From: a virus
Lineage: Duplodnaviria > Heunggongvirae > Uroviricota > Caudoviricetes
Reading direction: 5' to 3' (one strand)
Virus record (IMG/VR): IMGVR_UViG_2693429524_000015
Length of the DNA stretch: 22,704 nt
Positions within the stretch are counted from its first letter, which is position 1. Each line of letters opens with the position of its first letter. A program made the translations under genes and the position numbers. A model generated the notes under the pieces. That model was not told the DNA's origin and searched no databases. It saw only the letters and a program-made list of their open reading frames with translations. Below, piece after piece: positions 4,338 to 22,413 of this stretch.

Positions 4338-7160
4338 ATGACGGCAGAGTACATCAGGGACTGGCAACAACCGCGCCACGCAGTGGGGCGTGAAGGAACG
4401 GGGATCCCCGCTCCTGAATCCGCGCTTTCCTCCTGGCTGGATGCCTACCGGGTAGAGAACGAGCGCCGCCAGGAAATGGCTGATGCGGCGTTCTCCGCCA
4501 CGCCACTGGGCAACCTGATTAATAAAAGCCTGGACGCACAGGAAAAACAGGACAAAACCATCACACTGGCAGGAGACGCCAGAAAACAGGCACGCGGCGC
4601 GGTGGATGAAGCCATGGCCTCGCTGCGCCTGCTGCCGTCCTATCTGCGCGATCCGCTTATTCGCCACCTCTCCTTCCTGCGCAAAAAACAGGAAGCCGAT
4701 CGCCGGAAAGGCAAAAAGAGCTGGCAGGCGGAACGCTATGCACGCGGAACCCTGCGCAAAATATTCGAACGTCTGGATCGCACTGACGGACACTGGCTGA
4801 CACCGGGTTATCGCTCCCTTGCCGGACGCGAACGCCTGGACGATTTGCTTTACCTGCCGCAGCTCAACAAACACCAGATACAGACGCTGGCCACCATGAC
4901 GGCGGCGATGTTCAGCAGCACCTTCGAAAAACTCTGCGATGGCTTTGGCGCGACCGATGGCGAACTGACCATGGATGTAACGCTGAAGGCGTATCAGATG
5001 CTGGCCCGCATGGCGTTACACCTGCACATCATGCCTCCACATTATGACGCACTGACAACAGATAAAGACCGGAGGAACGAACCGGACACGGAGCTGCTGC
5101 CGGGCGCAATCCTTCGCCTGACCTGTGCGGAATGGTGGAAACGCAAACTGTGGCTGTTACGTTGCGAGTGGAGAGAAGAACAACTCCGCGCCGCCTGTCT
5201 GGTTTCCAGAAAAACATCACCCTATCTGAGCCAGGACGCGTTAAGCGAGTTTCGCGCACAGCGCGAGAAAACACGCGATTTCCTGAAAAGTTTCATGCTG
5301 GAAAACGAAGACGGGTTCACGATTGATCTCGAGACAGTGTATTACGCGGGAGTAAGTAACCCGGTTCACCGTAAGGCAGAAATGATGGCCACCATGAAGG
5401 GGCTGGAACTTCTGGCCGAAGCCCGTGGCGACAAAGCGGTGTTTCTAACTGTCACCTGCCCGTCAAAATACCACGCCACAACAGAGAACGGTCATCCGAA
5501 TCCCAAATGGAACGGGGCCACCATGCGCGACTCCAGCGATTACCTGGTTAACACGTTTTTTGCAGCGGTCCGCAAGAAACTGAACCGCGACGGCCTGCGC
5601 TGGTATGGCATCCGCACGGTGGAGCCTCACCATGACGGCACCGTGCACTGGCATATGATGGTCTTTGCTCATCCGGAAGAAATCGACACCATTGTGTCCC
5701 ACACCCGCGATATTGCCATTCAGGAAGATCGTCACGAGCTGGGTGATGATATTACCCCACGCTTTAAGGCGGAGTACGTCGACGGCTCAAAAGGCACGCC
5801 AACCAGCTACATCGCCACCTACATCGGAAAGAACCTGGACAGCCGCGCCGTGGATGGCATCGACCCGAAAACGGGCAAGCCACGCGTTGACCACGAAACA
5901 GGTAAATCAATGGCCGAGAGCGTGGAGCGAGCCATCGGCTGGGCGCGCCTTCACCGGGTCCGCCAGTTCCAGTTCTTTGGCATCCCCTCCCGTCAGGTGT
6001 GGCGTGAACTCCGCCGCCTTGCCAGCCAGATGGCACGCAACCCGGAAGGCCCGCAACGGCTGAAGGATGACGCAATGGATGCGGTACTCGCTGCCGCTGA
6101 TGCCGGATGTTTTGCCACCTACATTGAAAAACAGGGTGGCGTACTTGTTCCGCGCAAGGACTACCTGATTCGCACAGCCTACGACCTCGCAGATGAGCTG
6201 AACGATTACGGCGAACAGAGTGTACAGATTTACGGGATCTGGTCGCCATTCATCGGGGAATCCTCCCGTGTGTGCACGCATCCGGATAACTGGAAGCTGG
6301 TAAGACGTAAACCGGAAGCGGAAGACAGCGCCCGCGAAAATGGTTTTGACCTTCAGGGCGGCCCTGCCGCCCCTTGGACTCGTGGCAATAACTGTCCCCG
6401 TGTACAGGAAACAGGCAACAACGGGACAGAACAGCCGGAAGAACGGCCAGCACCGTGGCCGCAGCTTCCTGACGGCGTTGAAGTAAATGAATGGATGCGC
6501 TCACTGAAACGGCACGAACGCCGGGCGCTGATGCGTTCGCTTCGTGACAAACAGGCAAAAAACAGCAGCGATGAAATGCAGAACTGGACACAGAGCCGCA
6601 AACAGCAGCGGCCTTTGCCTGATAACCACGAGTTACTCGCTAAAGAATGGCGGGAGTCTGCTGAATCTCTCGGCCTGCATATCGGTGAACAACAGATGCA
6701 GCACCTGTTACGGGGCGGCAGTCTGTACGTTGACGGCAGCATCATTGCACCGCAGGGATTTGAAATTGTACGCAAACCGGATACCCGCCCGGACAGCCGA
6801 ATCACGCAGCTCTGGCAGCGTCTGAGCCGTAATCATGGCGTAAGCAGCACGGAGATCCGCCATAACCCGGTCGCCAGCTATCTGGCACAGCTGGGGGCAT
6901 CAGACCCTGAAGCCGCCGCACGCCTGGCATCCACACTTCAGCAGGACCAGAACACCATGAAAACACCCGTTACCGTGCTTTCTGACATGCTGCGCGCCAT
7001 CCGCGACGCAGAGCACGCACAGAGAATCAGTGAAACCACTGAACGCGCCAGCCGCAAAGCAGACCTGCTGCGGGGTGGCCTGACCAGTGGAAACAAAAAA
7101 CAGACAGAAACGGGACTCACGAATCCCGTAAATGAGCAAAAAACGCGCAGCGATATATGA
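4338..7160 (+). CDS. A: Rolling-circle replication initiator endonuclease, P2 gpA-like, with a long C-terminal extension
   Basis: 940 aa. HUH-type motif VHWHMMVF and paired tyrosines SYIATYIGK (Y-x3-Y) as in P2 A. The protein is about 180 aa longer than P2 A as I recall it. Confidence 0.9.
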   Translation: MTAEYIRDWQQPRHAVGREGTGIPAPESALSSWLDAYRVENERRQEMADAAFSATPLGNLINKSLDAQEKQDKTITLAGDARKQARGAVDEAMASLRLLPSYLRDPLIRHLSFLRKKQEADRRKGKKSWQAERYARGTLRKIFERLDRTDGHWLTPGYRSLAGRERLDDLLYLPQLNKHQIQTLATMTAAMFSSTFEKLCDGFGATDGELTMDVTLKAYQMLARMALHLHIMPPHYDALTTDKDRRNEPDTELLPGAILRLTCAEWWKRKLWLLRCEWREEQLRAACLVSRKTSPYLSQDALSEFRAQREKTRDFLKSFMLENEDGFTIDLETVYYAGVSNPVHRKAEMMATMKGLELLAEARGDKAVFLTVTCPSKYHATTENGHPNPKWNGATMRDSSDYLVNTFFAAVRKKLNRDGLRWYGIRTVEPHHDGTVHWHMMVFAHPEEIDTIVSHTRDIAIQEDRHELGDDITPRFKAEYVDGSKGTPTSYIATYIGKNLDSRAVDGIDPKTGKPRVDHETGKSMAESVERAIGWARLHRVRQFQFFGIPSRQVWRELRRLASQMARNPEGPQRLKDDAMDAVLAAADAGCFATYIEKQGGVLVPRKDYLIRTAYDLADELNDYGEQSVQIYGIWSPFIGESSRVCTHPDNWKLVRRKPEAEDSARENGFDLQGGPAAPWTRGNNCPRVQETGNNGTEQPEERPAPWPQLPDGVEVNEWMRSLKRHERRALMRSLRDKQAKNSSDEMQNWTQSRKQQRPLPDNHELLAKEWRESAESLGLHIGEQQMQHLLRGGSLYVDGSIIAPQGFEIVRKPDTRPDSRITQLWQRLSRNHGVSSTEIRHNPVASYLAQLGASDPEAAARLASTLQQDQNTMKTPVTVLSDMLRAIRDAEHAQRISETTERASRKADLLRGGLTSGNKKQTETGLTNPVNEQKTRSDI

Positions 7161-7210
7161 AGCGCGCACAAAACAGGCAAAAACGGGATTTCAGAATCCC
7201 GTAAACGATT
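7092..7210. repeat. Two copies of a ~40-bp direct repeat, each with an internal hairpin; candidate parC-like centromere/operator
   Basis: Copy 1 about 7092-7140 (acaaaaaacagacagaaacgggactcacgaatcccgtaaatga), copy 2 about 7167-7210 (acaaaacaggcaaaaacgggatttcagaatcccgtaaacga). Copy 2 contains a perfect 8-bp inverted repeat acgggatt/aatcccgt. The copies flank a GC/AT-rich spacer upstream of the parM-like gene. Confidence 0.5.
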
Positions 7211-7236
7211 AATTAATCAACATAAGGAAAACCGAC

Positions 7237-8196
7237 ATGAAAATTTACATCGACGACGGCTCCACCAACATCAAGCTGGCATGGACTGAGAACGGCGAAC
7301 GCCGCAACGCCATCAGCCCGAACAGCTTCAAGTCGGAATGGTCTGCGCCGTTCGGTGGCTCGCAGCCTGCTAACTACATGCTTGATGGCGTGCGCTATGG
7401 TTTTGATCCGGTCAGCGATCGCTTTGTCCAGACGACCGACACGCAATACCAGTACAGCGATGTGAATGTCATTGCCATTCATCACGCGCTGGTCAAATCA
7501 GACATCACGCCACAGGAAGTGGATGTGGTTGTTACCCTGCCACTGAGCGAATATTTCGACACAAACGCACAGCCGGACATGGCCAACATCAACCGCAAAA
7601 AAGCGAACGTCATGCGCCCGGTGGAGTACCAGAACGGCGAAGCATTCACTATCCGTAACGTACGGGTTATGCCTGAATCCATTCCGGCTGGCTTTAAAGC
7701 ACTGGCTGACATGAGTCCGTTTGAATCCCTGCTGATTGTGGATTTGGGCGGAACCACGCTGGATGTGGCAAAGGTTCAGGGGCAACTGGCAGGTATCAGC
7801 CAGGTGTTTTGCGATCCACACGTAGGCGTTTCTCTTATGGCCGATGCCGTACTGTCGGTGATGGCCACTAACGGTATGCGCACCAGTCACCACATCGCCA
7901 ATACCATTATCGAACATCGCCATAATGAAGCCTGGCTGCGCCAGCACATCCACAATGACGCGCATTACGCCAGCCTGATGGCGGTTATTCGTGAAAAGGA
8001 AGAAACACTGAAACAACGCGTGATCCGCGCGCTGGCGGTTTTTTCGGGTTACGGGCGGGTGATGGTTGTCGGTGGCGGGGCGGAGATTGTGGCACCCGCT
8101 ATCCGCGAAGCCTGCGGAGTTAATGCGACTTTCATCGCGGACGGGGTGCCACAGTTTGCTCTGGTTAATGGGCTGTACGCAATGGACAAGGAGTAA
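7237..8196 (+). CDS. parM: Actin-like segregation ATPase, ParM/StbA family
   Basis: 319 aa. Actin-fold motifs MKIYIDDGSTNIKLAW, LIVDLGGTTLDV and VMVVGGGAE. From memory it aligns along its whole length with plasmid R1 ParM. RBS aaggaaa upstream. Confidence 0.8.
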   Translation: MKIYIDDGSTNIKLAWTENGERRNAISPNSFKSEWSAPFGGSQPANYMLDGVRYGFDPVSDRFVQTTDTQYQYSDVNVIAIHHALVKSDITPQEVDVVVTLPLSEYFDTNAQPDMANINRKKANVMRPVEYQNGEAFTIRNVRVMPESIPAGFKALADMSPFESLLIVDLGGTTLDVAKVQGQLAGISQVFCDPHVGVSLMADAVLSVMATNGMRTSHHIANTIIEHRHNEAWLRQHIHNDAHYASLMAVIREKEETLKQRVIRALAVFSGYGRVMVVGGGAEIVAPAIREACGVNATFIADGVPQFALVNGLYAMDKE

Positions 8197-8200
8197 ACCA

Positions 8201-8512
8201 ATGACGACACCAACCAGACGGATAAGTTTCTATCTGAAGCCCGCCGCCGTCAAGAACGAAGGAGAAGCATGCGCCTGGCTGGACAGCCTTACACCAGAAG
8301 CCCGCAAAAGCGGCCAACGCGTGGCTTTTCTGGCCGGGCTGGCACTTCTGAAGACGAATCCGGCAGAGGCTTACCGACTGGCCGCATGGGCTGATGATGA
8401 GATGTTACCTGTGACACAAATCAGCTCAAAAAAGTTTGAAGCACAGTCTGCACCAGTGGCTAAGATAACCAGCCAGATGGCTGGGAATATCCGGGCGTTA
8501 TTTCCTGAGTAA
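8201..8512 (+). CDS. parR: ParR-like centromere-binding adaptor (putative)
   Basis: 103 aa; start 4 nt after the parM stop with RBS aaggag. N-terminus RRISFYLKPAAV...AWLDSLTPEARKSGQRVAFLAGLALL resembles R1 ParR (RRTIAFKLNP...DTLDSIPQGERSRLNRAALTAGLALY) as recalled. Confidence 0.7.
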   Translation: MTTPTRRISFYLKPAAVKNEGEACAWLDSLTPEARKSGQRVAFLAGLALLKTNPAEAYRLAAWADDEMLPVTQISSKKFEAQSAPVAKITSQMAGNIRALFPE

Positions 8513-8640
8513 AAGCATCTGCGCGAAAAATGCTCACGTTTATAGAGACAGTATCATTCCATTTGGCACACTTACTTCAATAATCGATCTGTTAAACAAA
8601 TAGATTGTCTATTATCTATCGATTAAAACGATCAATTATC

Positions 8641-8668
8641 TTGACAGTAATGTGCCTTTTTGTAAGAT
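8641..8668 (+). promoter_or_regulatory. Candidate sigma70 promoter (TTGACA-N16-TAAGAT)
   Basis: ttgaca at 8641-8646 and taagat at 8663-8668, downstream of an AT-rich palindrome-rich region. Confidence 0.4.
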
Positions 8669-8774
8669 CGTTCGCATTGTGAGCGACAAGATAATTGCGC
8701 GGCATTGTCCATGCAAAACGCCCCAATAGCAGCAACTATTGGGGCGTAAAACTCGGTCGGACTCACTTAACCTG

Positions 8775-8860
8775 ATATGCGTGCCTTCCGAAGTAAATCA
8801 AAATGTGCGTCGTATATTTTATTGCTTACACGCACCTCTGTAAAGGCACGCATATTTTTC
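8775..8860 (+). terminator. Long stem-loop with T5 tail; candidate intrinsic terminator, attenuator or 3' end of a small RNA
   Basis: Perfect 13-bp arms atatgcgtgcctt (8775-8787) and aaggcacgcatat (8843-8855), enclosing an inner 6-bp stem gtgcgt/acgcac, followed by ttttt (8855-8859). Confidence 0.45.
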
Positions 8861-8876
8861 CTATGAGGTAAATAAA

Positions 8877-9146
8877 GTGCGGGCTAAAACAGGTATTTGC
8901 AAGAACCCTCATCGTTATAATCCAACATTTCTGTCTCTCCCTGAATATCAAGGACAAGAAGGTCGGCACAAATGCGCTGCCTGTGCTTTTGAGCTAGGCA
9001 TAAAAGATGCGCTTGAAGGACGCGCTATGGCTCAGAATGATTTAGTTTTAGCTAACATTCCGTTTAGCCAGGCTGGAACTGTAAGGCACAGAGATGCCTA
9101 TGAAGCATATGTTCGTGGTTGGCGATTAATAAACAGCAACAATTGA
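8877..9146 (+). CDS. Orphan 89-aa protein with Cys/His cluster (hypothetical)
   Basis: GTG start with RBS gagg 8 nt upstream. C8, H12, H31, C33, C36 could form a metal-binding site. Followed 10 nt later by a clean intrinsic terminator. No family recognised. Confidence 0.55.
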   Translation: MRAKTGICKNPHRYNPTFLSLPEYQGQEGRHKCAACAFELGIKDALEGRAMAQNDLVLANIPFSQAGTVRHRDAYEAYVRGWRLINSNN

Positions 9147-9155
9147 TACTTTTGA

Positions 9156-9178
9156 AGCGCCGATAAGGCGCTTTTTTT
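9156..9178 (+). terminator. Rho-independent terminator
   Basis: agcgcc-gataa-ggcgct stem-loop followed by tttttt. Confidence 0.7.
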
Positions 9179-9179
9179 G

Positions 9180-9330
9180 TTTGCACGATAGTGCACAAGT
9201 TTGCACAATTTTTTTGAACGACTTTTTGTACTTCCGGCCCGCGTGGTGGCTGGATCCGTCAAGGATCCGTACGTGCACAAAAAAACGCGTTTTTTCTGCG
9301 CGCAGGTGACGGGGGAACAGCCCGCGTTTC
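9180..9330. other. Candidate cos / packaging region
   Basis: Sits where P2 has cos, upstream of Q. tgcac occurs at exact 10-bp spacing (9182, 9192, 9202); ggatccgt is directly repeated; palindrome aaaaaacgcgtttttt (9280-9295); G-rich ggtgacgggggaacagcc (9306-9323) loosely resembles the P2/186 cohesive-end sequence as recalled. Confidence 0.3.
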
Positions 9331-9632
9331 AGGGGGTAAATAGCATTCCCTGAACGATGTCGCAGAGATAGAACAGAATGGCTGTATTTCTCACGCTGAG
9401 CGTGAAAAAGACGTGAGGGCTTTTGATTTGATGGGGTGAAAGGTAAGGCCGTCAAAATCGCACTGAGACGGCGAGAACATGCAGTCAACGCGGTGGGATT
9501 GCGTAAGAGTCTGACTGTCGATGATGGCAATCAGCAGGAAAGCATCGTGAAATTATCTGACTGATACAGGAGCTGGAGAGTCGGGGCATAAATTTTTTAT
9601 GCCCCGGCGAAGCAGCAGACAAGCGAAGCGCG

Positions 9633-20923: not shown

Positions 20924-22413
20924 CAGTGAAATACTACGCCATTCTGACTAATCAGGGCGCGGCACGACTGGCTAACGCGACGATGCTCGGCAGTAAGCTG
21001 AATCTGACGCAAATGGCCGTTGGTGATGCAAATGGTGTGTTACCAACACCAGACCCTGCACAAACAAAACTGATTAACCAGAAACGCATTGCACCGCTGA
21101 ATCTTCTGAGTGTTGACCCTAACAATCAGAGCCAGATTATTGCGGAGCAAATCATCCCTGAAAACGAGGGAGGATTCTGGATCCGTGAGATTGGTCTTTA
21201 TGATGATGAAGGTGTACTCATTGCGGTGGCAAACTGCCCGGAAACGTACAAACCGCAGTTGCAGGAAGGCAGTGGACGCACCCAGACTATCCGCATGATT
21301 CTGGTTGTCACGAACACCGAAGCCATCACGCTGAAAATCGACCCGTCTGTGGTTCTGGCAACCCGCAAATATGTGGATGATAAAATATCAGAGCACGAAC
21401 AGTCACGACGTCACCCGGACGCCTCGCTGACCGTAAAAGGTTTTACTCAGTTAAGCAGTGCAATTAACAGTGAATCAGAAACACTGGCCGCAACACCGAA
21501 AGCGGTTAAGGCTGCATATGACCTGGCTAACGAGAAATATACCGCCCAGAACGCCACCACTACACAAAAAGGGATTGTTCAGCTCAGTAGCGCCACGAAC
21601 AGCACGTCTGAAACACTGGCAGCGACACCAAAAGCTGTTAAGGCGGTAATGGATGAAACGAACAAGAAAGCACCATTAAACAGCCCGGCACTGACCGGAA
21701 CGCCAACAACACCAACAGCGCCACAGGGGACTAATAGTACCCAGATCGCAAGCACGGCTTTCGTTATGGCCGCGATTGCCGCACTTGTAGATTCGTCACC
21801 TGATGCACTGAACACGCTGAACGAACTGGCTGCGGCGCTGGGCAATGACCCGAATTTTGCGACCACCATGACTAACGCGCTTGCGGGTAAGCAACCGAAG
21901 GATGCCACCCTGACGGCGCTGGCGGAGCTTGCTACATCAGCAGATAAACTCCCATATTTTACAGGGGCAGATCGTGCCGCGTTAACCGCGTTGACAAGTG
22001 TTGGACGTGCCATTCTTGGTAAAACCAGCACTCAGGGAGTTCTTGATTACCTTGGTTTGGGAGAAGCGGCGAAAAGGGATGTGGGCACAGGAGAAAATCA
22101 GATACCGGATATGTCAGCCTGGAAAAGAAATCCGAGTTCTAATCGCTGGAGAAAATTGCCTGATGGAACCATCATTCAAATGGGAATATCAGCATCAGGG
22201 CCATTAGGCTCACCTGTAAATATCCCCCTGCCGATATCTTTCAGCAATACCAATTATTGTGTTGTTGCATCGTACGATAATGCACGGTCAGGTGTGTCAA
22301 CAATGGTTAGTTTTGCAGCGTTACCTGTTTCACCATCGCAATTTTCCCTGATGTCATCTGTGACTGAGCAAGGAATAAATCCTTTTGCTTACTGGATTGC
22401 TTTTGGAGATTAA
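20920..22413 (+). CDS. H: Tail fibre protein, P2 gpH-like
   Basis: 497 aa; start overlaps the I stop. Conserved N-terminus MTVKYYAILTNQGAARLANA, tandem SETLAATPKAVKA repeats, divergent C-terminal domain. Confidence 0.88.
   Translation: MTVKYYAILTNQGAARLANATMLGSKLNLTQMAVGDANGVLPTPDPAQTKLINQKRIAPLNLLSVDPNNQSQIIAEQIIPENEGGFWIREIGLYDDEGVLIAVANCPETYKPQLQEGSGRTQTIRMILVVTNTEAITLKIDPSVVLATRKYVDDKISEHEQSRRHPDASLTVKGFTQLSSAINSESETLAATPKAVKAAYDLANEKYTAQNATTTQKGIVQLSSATNSTSETLAATPKAVKAVMDETNKKAPLNSPALTGTPTTPTAPQGTNSTQIASTAFVMAAIAALVDSSPDALNTLNELAAALGNDPNFATTMTNALAGKQPKDATLTALAELATSADKLPYFTGADRAALTALTSVGRAILGKTSTQGVLDYLGLGEAAKRDVGTGENQIPDMSAWKRNPSSNRWRKLPDGTIIQMGISASGPLGSPVNIPLPISFSNTNYCVVASYDNARSGVSTMVSFAALPVSPSQFSLMSSVTEQGINPFAYWIAFGD

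Follow-up and report, generated by a model that had tools for sequence, protein, structure and literature searches.

Why should an integrating phage keep a partition motor beside its replication gene? The question is raised by a 22,704-nucleotide (nt) stretch of viral DNA (IMG/VR record IMGVR_UViG_2693429524_000015), referred to below as the window, which is a P88-like P2-family prophage (Xuanwuvirus, Peduoviridae) with a parM-parR gene pair of the plasmid R1 type. ParMRC is the textbook bacterial "mitotic" machine, yet to our knowledge its centromeres have been described in no more than a handful of plasmids. Two direct repeats span the end of the replication gene A and the region upstream of parM. 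They are probably the cis-acting partition site of the parMR cassette of P88-like P2-family phages, that is, a two-site equivalent of parC. No study of parMR in P88, Xuanwuvirus or CP-933T was found in the literature; the genes are annotated in databases.

A reading made from the DNA letters alone, called here the sequence-only reading, had pointed to two hairpin-bearing direct repeats at 7092-7210. The repeat search of the window recovered them as one two-copy family of 42 nt, with copy 1 at 7094-7135 and copy 2 at 7167-7208. The copies are identical at 34 of 42 positions (81%) and are 73 base pairs (bp) apart, start to start. The best 42-nt match was at most 28 in 100 dinucleotide-preserving shuffles of the whole window (offsets 20-200), so that the pair stands above all shuffles. 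Copy 1 is made up of an A-rich box, a palindrome and an AAAT box; parM begins 29 bp after copy 2. Both contain the 20-bp palindrome ACGGGAyT-N4-AATCCCGT (7110-7129 and 7183-7202), the 8-bp arms of which are perfect in copy 2 and have one C.A mismatch at 7116 in the window's copy 1. A T at this position, giving perfect arms, is present in 30 of 52 distinct relatives. The motif ACGGGA-N8-TCCCGT (6+6) is found at these two places only in 22.7 kb, for an expected number of 0.03. The shorter pattern GGG-N10-CCC occurs three times in the whole window, against a background of 0.04 per 200 nt, and two of the occurrences are the repeat cores, at 7112-7127 (site 1, -125 from the parM ATG) and 7185-7200 (site 2, -52). 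RNA folding of both hairpins yields about -9 to -11 kcal/mol, with z-scores of -2.6 to -3.7 on the plus strand. In addition, AAAY boxes recur with a phase of 10.5 bp over the 116 bp (R = 0.93; about 1% of a structured null), which suggests intrinsic curvature or weak secondary ParR contacts.

The location of copy 1 raises the question of whether the repeats belong to A or to parMR. Gene A (4338-7160, plus strand) encodes 940 amino acids (aa), with a Pfam Phage_GPA match over residues 179-503 (E = 5.8e-132). Copy 1 does lie inside its last 22 codons, and its stop codon TGA (7158-7160) is located within the 31-bp spacer (7136-7166) that separates the copies. Of the matches to 6600-7400 in complete E. 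coli genomes, a minority end near 7048. In three such prophages with an A gene 95-99% identical (L012, L013, L014), homology is lost from about 7048, and both repeats are absent together with parMR. The cargo that follows A in these prophages encodes an AAA ATPase and an S8 peptidase (L012, L014), or consists of three minus-strand genes (L013). In three IMG/VR loci (L076, L063, L058) the upstream sequence is unrelated, and homology sets in at about 7093-7096, almost exactly where copy 1 begins. At the other end, matches to P88-type phages stop at 8512, the last position of the parR stop codon and the right edge of the cassette. Since homology starts at copy 1 and the right edge coincides with the parR stop, copy 1, the spacer, copy 2, parM and parR make up the mobile unit, of 1.4 kb at about 7095-8512.

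IMG/VR was scanned for the palindrome, and 80 of the returned loci were examined. The pairs of palindromes 72-73 bp apart all adjoin parM; single palindromes without parM are unrelated metagenome contigs or contig ends. Repeats in P2-like genomes lacking parMR, which the sequence-only reading had named as the case against a connection with partition, were looked for in the parMR-less P88-like prophages, and none were found. The repeats behave as a cis element linked to parMR: they are absent where parMR is absent, they are present behind other upstream genes, and their core is conserved in distant relatives, as described below. Comparison of the loci thus supports their assignment to the parMR cassette and not to gene A.

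The same loci bear on whether the repeats are an A-dependent replication origin or a single-strand initiation signal of rolling-circle replication. The origins of P2 and 186 lie inside gene A, as copy 1 does, and the hairpins could form on displaced single strands. However, near-identical A genes occur without the repeats: neither copy is present in the three prophages cited above, where A is 95-99% identical up to 7048, and an A-dependent origin is thereby excluded. The repeats also follow an open reading frame (ORF) other than A in L063, and they always accompany parMR. An origin-associated structure, which had been put forward from the sequence, is therefore hardly credible.

The proposal that insertion of the cassette created the C-terminus of A is supported. 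In relatives without the cassette, the A stop codon occurs 19-25 codons earlier. In L063, a 155-aa ORF unrelated to A carries at its end the same 21 residues, translated from copy 1 and part of the spacer. The idea that this tail is a functional peptide was rejected: whichever of the three frames enters copy 1, a stop codon follows within 13-22 codons, and the use of one frame in both contexts is a 1-in-3 event.

The slot between A and the portal gene (7048-9632) is a cargo hotspot, occupied by parMR in most P88-like prophages. The other cargos are the ATPase and peptidase pair, which is defence-like, or the three minus-strand genes, which are hypothetical. The switch point between cargos is inside the 3' end of A, at about 7048. 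Gene A contains a 20-nt imperfect direct repeat (6993-7012 and 7044-7063; 85% identity, 51 bp apart), the second copy of which is at the homology breakpoint with the parMR-less prophages. This repeat may serve in recombination, or may be no more than a feature of the coding sequence. In a decayed cassette (L078, 1-1522), an IS66-family element replaces everything upstream of copy 2, and parM is truncated.

Conservation was examined first within the E. coli-type loci, with 52 distinct variants. Changes are frequent in the palindrome loops, where 5 of 8 columns are variable, and rare in the arms; the commonest arm change, C7116T, makes the palindrome perfect. In the spacer, 18 of 31 columns are variable among E. 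coli-type relatives; its sequence cannot be aligned across genera and only its length is conserved. In E. coli genomes, the 145-bp repeat region (7092-7236) is represented by 564 records at 90-95% identity, versus 10 for the enclosing 801-bp stretch (6600-7400); the half-sites are mostly fixed despite this variability. As the E. coli-type sequences are too close to be decisive, the comparison was widened.

The order A-parM-parR before the portal gene was also found in P2-like prophages of Plesiomonas, Hafnia, Serratia and Enterobacter, with ParM proteins 53-62% identical to that of the window. In Plesiomonas and Hafnia, ParM is 62% and ParR 35-38% identical, and the N-terminal strand of ParR reads TRR[IV]SFYL. 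Each has exactly two GGG-N10-CCC sites upstream of parM, at -131 and -59 from the ATG in Plesiomonas (strand TRRISFYL, spacing 72 bp) and at -128 and -55 in Hafnia (TRRVSFYL, 73 bp), to be compared with -125 and -52 in the window (TRRISFYL, 73 bp). No GGG-N10-CCC site is present upstream of parM in Serratia and Enterobacter, where the strand is NRKISFYL, or in four plasmids with another strand (R1-like, RRTIAFKL), which have A/T-rich direct iterons in its place. A different ParR strand is accompanied by a different site pattern. Between genera, neither the spacer sequence nor the A-rich flanks and inner ten bases of the repeats are conserved. The half-sites, the 10-bp gap, the spacing of seven helical turns and the distance to parM are kept while the interior drifts, which argues for a protein-binding site. 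ParR is the expected binder, as it is the only DNA-binding protein of the cassette. From linkage and comparison, the two cores are most likely sites for ParR.

Upstream of parM, the Serratia and Enterobacter prophages (L222, 3887-3940; L223, 3883-3950) have a different design, an inverted repeat of 14-20 nt around GGGAAC..AATAGAAAAAT, which flanks a core of 26-28 bp.

The wider comparison also bears on the idea that a local duplication left the repeats behind as a remnant without function, which persists only because of the youth of the lineages. The E. coli-type relatives are 92-100% identical in this region, so that conservation among them has little power, and the 145-bp region is more variable than its flanks. 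The core, its spacing and its position nevertheless survive at 62% ParM identity, where the surroundings can no longer be aligned. Such a remnant is considered very improbable.

Alternatively, the hairpins could be intrinsic terminators or RNA stability elements of the minus strand, shielding A from antisense transcription out of the cargo region. Both hairpins have T-rich tails on the minus strand and are flagged as terminator-like on that strand only; the minus-strand fold amounts to -10.2 kcal/mol, and the copy-1 mismatch becomes a G.U pair. On the other hand, no minus-strand gene or promoter is located upstream of the hairpins, parM and parR being on the plus strand, and the copy-2 variant C7200T produces a G.U pair on the opposite strand, so that there is no consistent strand signal. 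A search of 6900-7400 against Rfam, with E values up to 1, gave no match. The stem is reduced to 3-4 pairs with a 10-nt loop in Plesiomonas and Hafnia, and the T tail is missing, yet the half-sites and the spacing are kept. The Plesiomonas inner ten bases (ACAACAAAAA) are not self-complementary and cannot form a useful hairpin, which indicates that the hairpin is incidental. A terminator or RNA element is very unlikely.

The proteins of the cassette match the proposed function of the sites. ParM (7237-8196, plus strand, 319 aa) has the Pfam domains StbA_N (9.7e-81) and ParM C-terminal (3e-68), and aligns with the R1 ParM structure 1mwk over residues 1-316 (E = 7.7e-92, PDB sequence search). 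ParR (8201-8512, plus strand, 103 aa) matches PF10784 (E = 9.8e-24), as does the R1-type StbB of L009; it is 33% identical to an R1-type ParR over 61 residues, and carries the C-terminal N-x-x-x-LFP motif common to plasmid ParRs. A PDB sequence search with ParR returned no match even at E = 10. The AlphaFold2 model of the monomer, computed from a 12-sequence alignment, shows helices 20-29 and 32-52 after an unstructured strand region, a layout that agrees with a ribbon-helix-helix fold but is not informative. Residues 1-14 of ParR are the same in all full-length E. coli-type variants that were compared, even where overall identity is only 54-56%. No co-variation of the sites with these 54-56% identical variants was observed; none is expected, as residues 1-14 do not vary and the differences lie further along.

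The sequence-only reading had suggested that the spacer could carry the parM promoter, as in R1. This was not supported. The best sigma-70 matrix score in 7060-7245 is 0.93, below 97% of equal-sized tiles of the window, when four plasmid parC regions score 9.6-13.8, at the expected place between the iteron blocks. The spacer is devoid of promoter-like hexamers and its sequence is not conserved. A consensus promoter scan found no promoter in the repeat region. The parM leader (7208-7236, plus strand) includes a Shine-Dalgarno sequence, AAGGA (7224-7228), and the element ATTAAT(T/C)AA (7208-7220), which is the only AT-rich element conserved in the alignment of three genera. A weak candidate promoter can be drawn from TTCAGA at 7190 (-35, in the copy-2 loop) and ATTAAT at 7212 (-10), with a spacing of 16 and a score of 0.81; its positional equivalent in Hafnia scores 8.8. 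No plus-strand terminator was found between A and parM. As neither a recognisable promoter between the copies nor an intervening terminator is present, parMR would be mainly transcribed with A, in the early replication operon, and would be silent in the repressed prophage.

A late promoter dependent on Ogr/Delta was also considered. Such promoters have a dyad TGT-N12-ACA centred near -55 of the start site. The sites here are GGG-N10-CCC, and a start 55 bp downstream of either centre would fall in the GC-rich spacer or within parM, so that this candidate was rejected. Inspection of the leader and the sites by eye revealed no match to the consensus of integration host factor (IHF) or to the Ogr-type dyad.

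The promoter scores bear on another explanation, in which the repeats serve solely as an operator. Transcription into or from parM would be controlled by ParR, or by some other protein of the phage or its host, acting for example as a roadblock to read-through from A or as the repressor of a weak promoter overlapping site 2; DNA movement would play no part. The best promoter-like positions do overlap site 2, in the window and, with a better score, in Hafnia; the ATTAAT element just downstream is kept in three genera; and the R1 sites double as operator and centromere (PMC2241845). Nevertheless, ParM and the N-x-x-x-LFP motif of ParR are conserved, with parM intact in 76 of 78 loci and parR in 75 of 78, which argues that motor function is kept. 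Furthermore, in known type II systems one stretch of DNA serves as both operator and centromere. As the sole function, an operator is rather unlikely; alongside partition, it is compatible with the two-site centromere model.

A mechanism can be proposed for this two-site centromere. The working core of each repeat would be the inverted half-site pair GGG-N10-CCC, the two cores being 73 bp, or seven helical turns, apart on the same DNA face. ParR dimers are predicted to bind each core through the N-terminal strand TRRISFYL, probably two dimers per site, occupying half-sites with centres 13 bp apart and leaving about 57 bp of free DNA between the two occupied sites. As in plasmid R1, bending of the intervening DNA may give a compact structure by which ParM filament ends are captured; the N-x-x-x-LFP motif of ParR would engage these ends. 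Because parMR is likely co-transcribed with the early replication operon, the system is presumed to act on excised or infecting phage circles and not in the silent prophage.

Several observations weigh against this interpretation. R1 has ten iterons, far more than the two sites here, which may be too few for a full segrosome. In the absence of a sigma-70-like promoter, the autoregulatory half of the R1 model is not reproduced. The ParR model (pLDDT, the predicted local distance difference test score, of 56) is too poor to confirm a ribbon-helix-helix fold. The core also tolerates change, as 11 of the 78 loci have CCT for CCC in site 2 with intact parM and parR, and one locus (L063) has CAGG in both sites. 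Finally, the low-copy plasmid setting of an autonomous replicon is not found here: in complete E. coli genomes, 1406 of 1408 places are chromosomal, and partition can therefore matter only in a transient episomal phase.

In L063, the same CGGG-to-CAGG change is present in both palindromes (1396-1545), with an unchanged ParR N-terminal domain. One copy may have converted the other, or the sites may have drifted without harm.

What such a system would do for the phage can be stated only tentatively. An integrating P2-like phage may possess a full actin-type machinery for moving DNA, with a minimal centromere of two sites, and express it only together with the early replication operon. Instead of maintaining a plasmid, the machinery would position or separate replicating phage circles once infection or induction has occurred, or sustain a carrier state that is episomal and transient. 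This role is conceivable, though less likely than not. A circular record of 34,461 bp deposited as the E. coli plasmid pZ1323PEC0009-2 (NZ_CP148288.1, L218) is a complete P88-like phage with parM, parR and an integrase gene. Either the assembly captured an excised circle, or the record hints at an episomal state.

How does the locus compare with known systems? In parC of plasmid R1, two ParR-coated blocks flank an unbound 39-bp core, and the phased, curved DNA folds into a U (PMC2241845). The R1/NR1 parC-ParR-ParM system (type II, stbA/stbB) shares with the phage cassette homologous ParM and ParR proteins and the order site-parM-parR. It also shares two binding blocks around an unbound core, helical phasing and A-rich curved DNA. 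The actin-like ParM, the R1/StbB-family ParR encoded directly after parM and the repeated cis site upstream are those of type II (ParMRC) systems. R1 differs by its two sets of five direct 11-bp iterons over 159 bp and by the par promoter in the 39-bp core, whereas the phage has two inverted-repeat sites over about 90-115 bp, no promoter-like core and one site inside the upstream ORF, in an integrating replicon. No five-plus-five array of 11-bp iterons was encountered here, the phasing of the AAAY boxes being the sole resemblance; the R1-like L009 has A/C-rich iterons. An offset of 72-73 bp apparently shared by the phage sites and plasmid parC was discarded, as in R1 it is the register of the iterons and not the spacing of the blocks, which is 94 bp (PMC2241845).

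In its repeat design, the phage site also resembles sopC. In plasmid F, sopC consists of direct repeats of about 43 bp, each enclosing a short inverted repeat to which the partition adaptor actually binds. sopC belongs, however, to a type Ia system (SopA, a Walker ATPase, and SopB, a helix-turn-helix protein) and has twelve tandem copies downstream of the genes. In Arc/Mnt-type ribbon-helix-helix operators, two inverted half-sites about one helical turn apart are occupied by two dimers forming a tetramer. The Arc/Mnt-type proteins differ in being pure repressors with no filament partner.

The CGP3 prophage of Corynebacterium provides the one studied precedent in a phage. Its AlpC and AlpA proteins are induced early on excision and are needed for efficient replication of the phage DNA (PMC4446434). 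The AlpC/AlpA/alpS system is comparable in that a prophage encodes an actin-like filament protein and a DNA-binding adaptor, and the adaptor binds repeats adjoining its own operon, the repeats here being predicted ParR sites. It differs in that the proteins are unrelated at the family level, the adaptor gene comes first, the alpS motif TTAAnnG is present 24 times and the host is an actinobacterium. With the locus described here, the idea that a prophage motor aids phage DNA replication could be tested by E. coli genetics.

The phage-borne site is most likely a new architectural variant of the type II partition site, and one very common in E. coli. It would be a naturally reduced centromere, with two 16-bp inverted sites seven turns apart and an R1-like ParM, and is a tractable system for testing the smallest number of ParR sites with which a filament can be capped. 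The segment 6600-7400 is carried by 1372 of 5426 complete E. coli genomes and is matched at 100% by the chromosome of E. coli SCU-105; the repeat region itself is present in 1285 of the 5426, the carriers including O157:H7 and uropathogenic E. coli (UPEC) strains. If the proposed function is true, a silent chromosomal centromere, to be activated by induction, is present in about one in four complete E. coli genomes. Among phages, 14 records match 6900-8700 at 94.7-98% identity, P88, 520873 and Shae_phiSM being among them.

The DNA 3' of parR (8513-9632) is variable. It has a strong promoter-like site, TTGACA-16-TAAGAT, at 8641-8668, followed by an 89-aa ORF at 8877-9146 (phrog_3941, unknown function) and by terminator-like hairpins near 9150 and 9585. 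The best direct repeat of the whole window is elsewhere, at 21475-21516 and 21607-21648 (35 of 42 positions, offset 132); it encodes SETLAATPKAVKA-like peptide repeats and is apparently a tail-fibre coding repeat.

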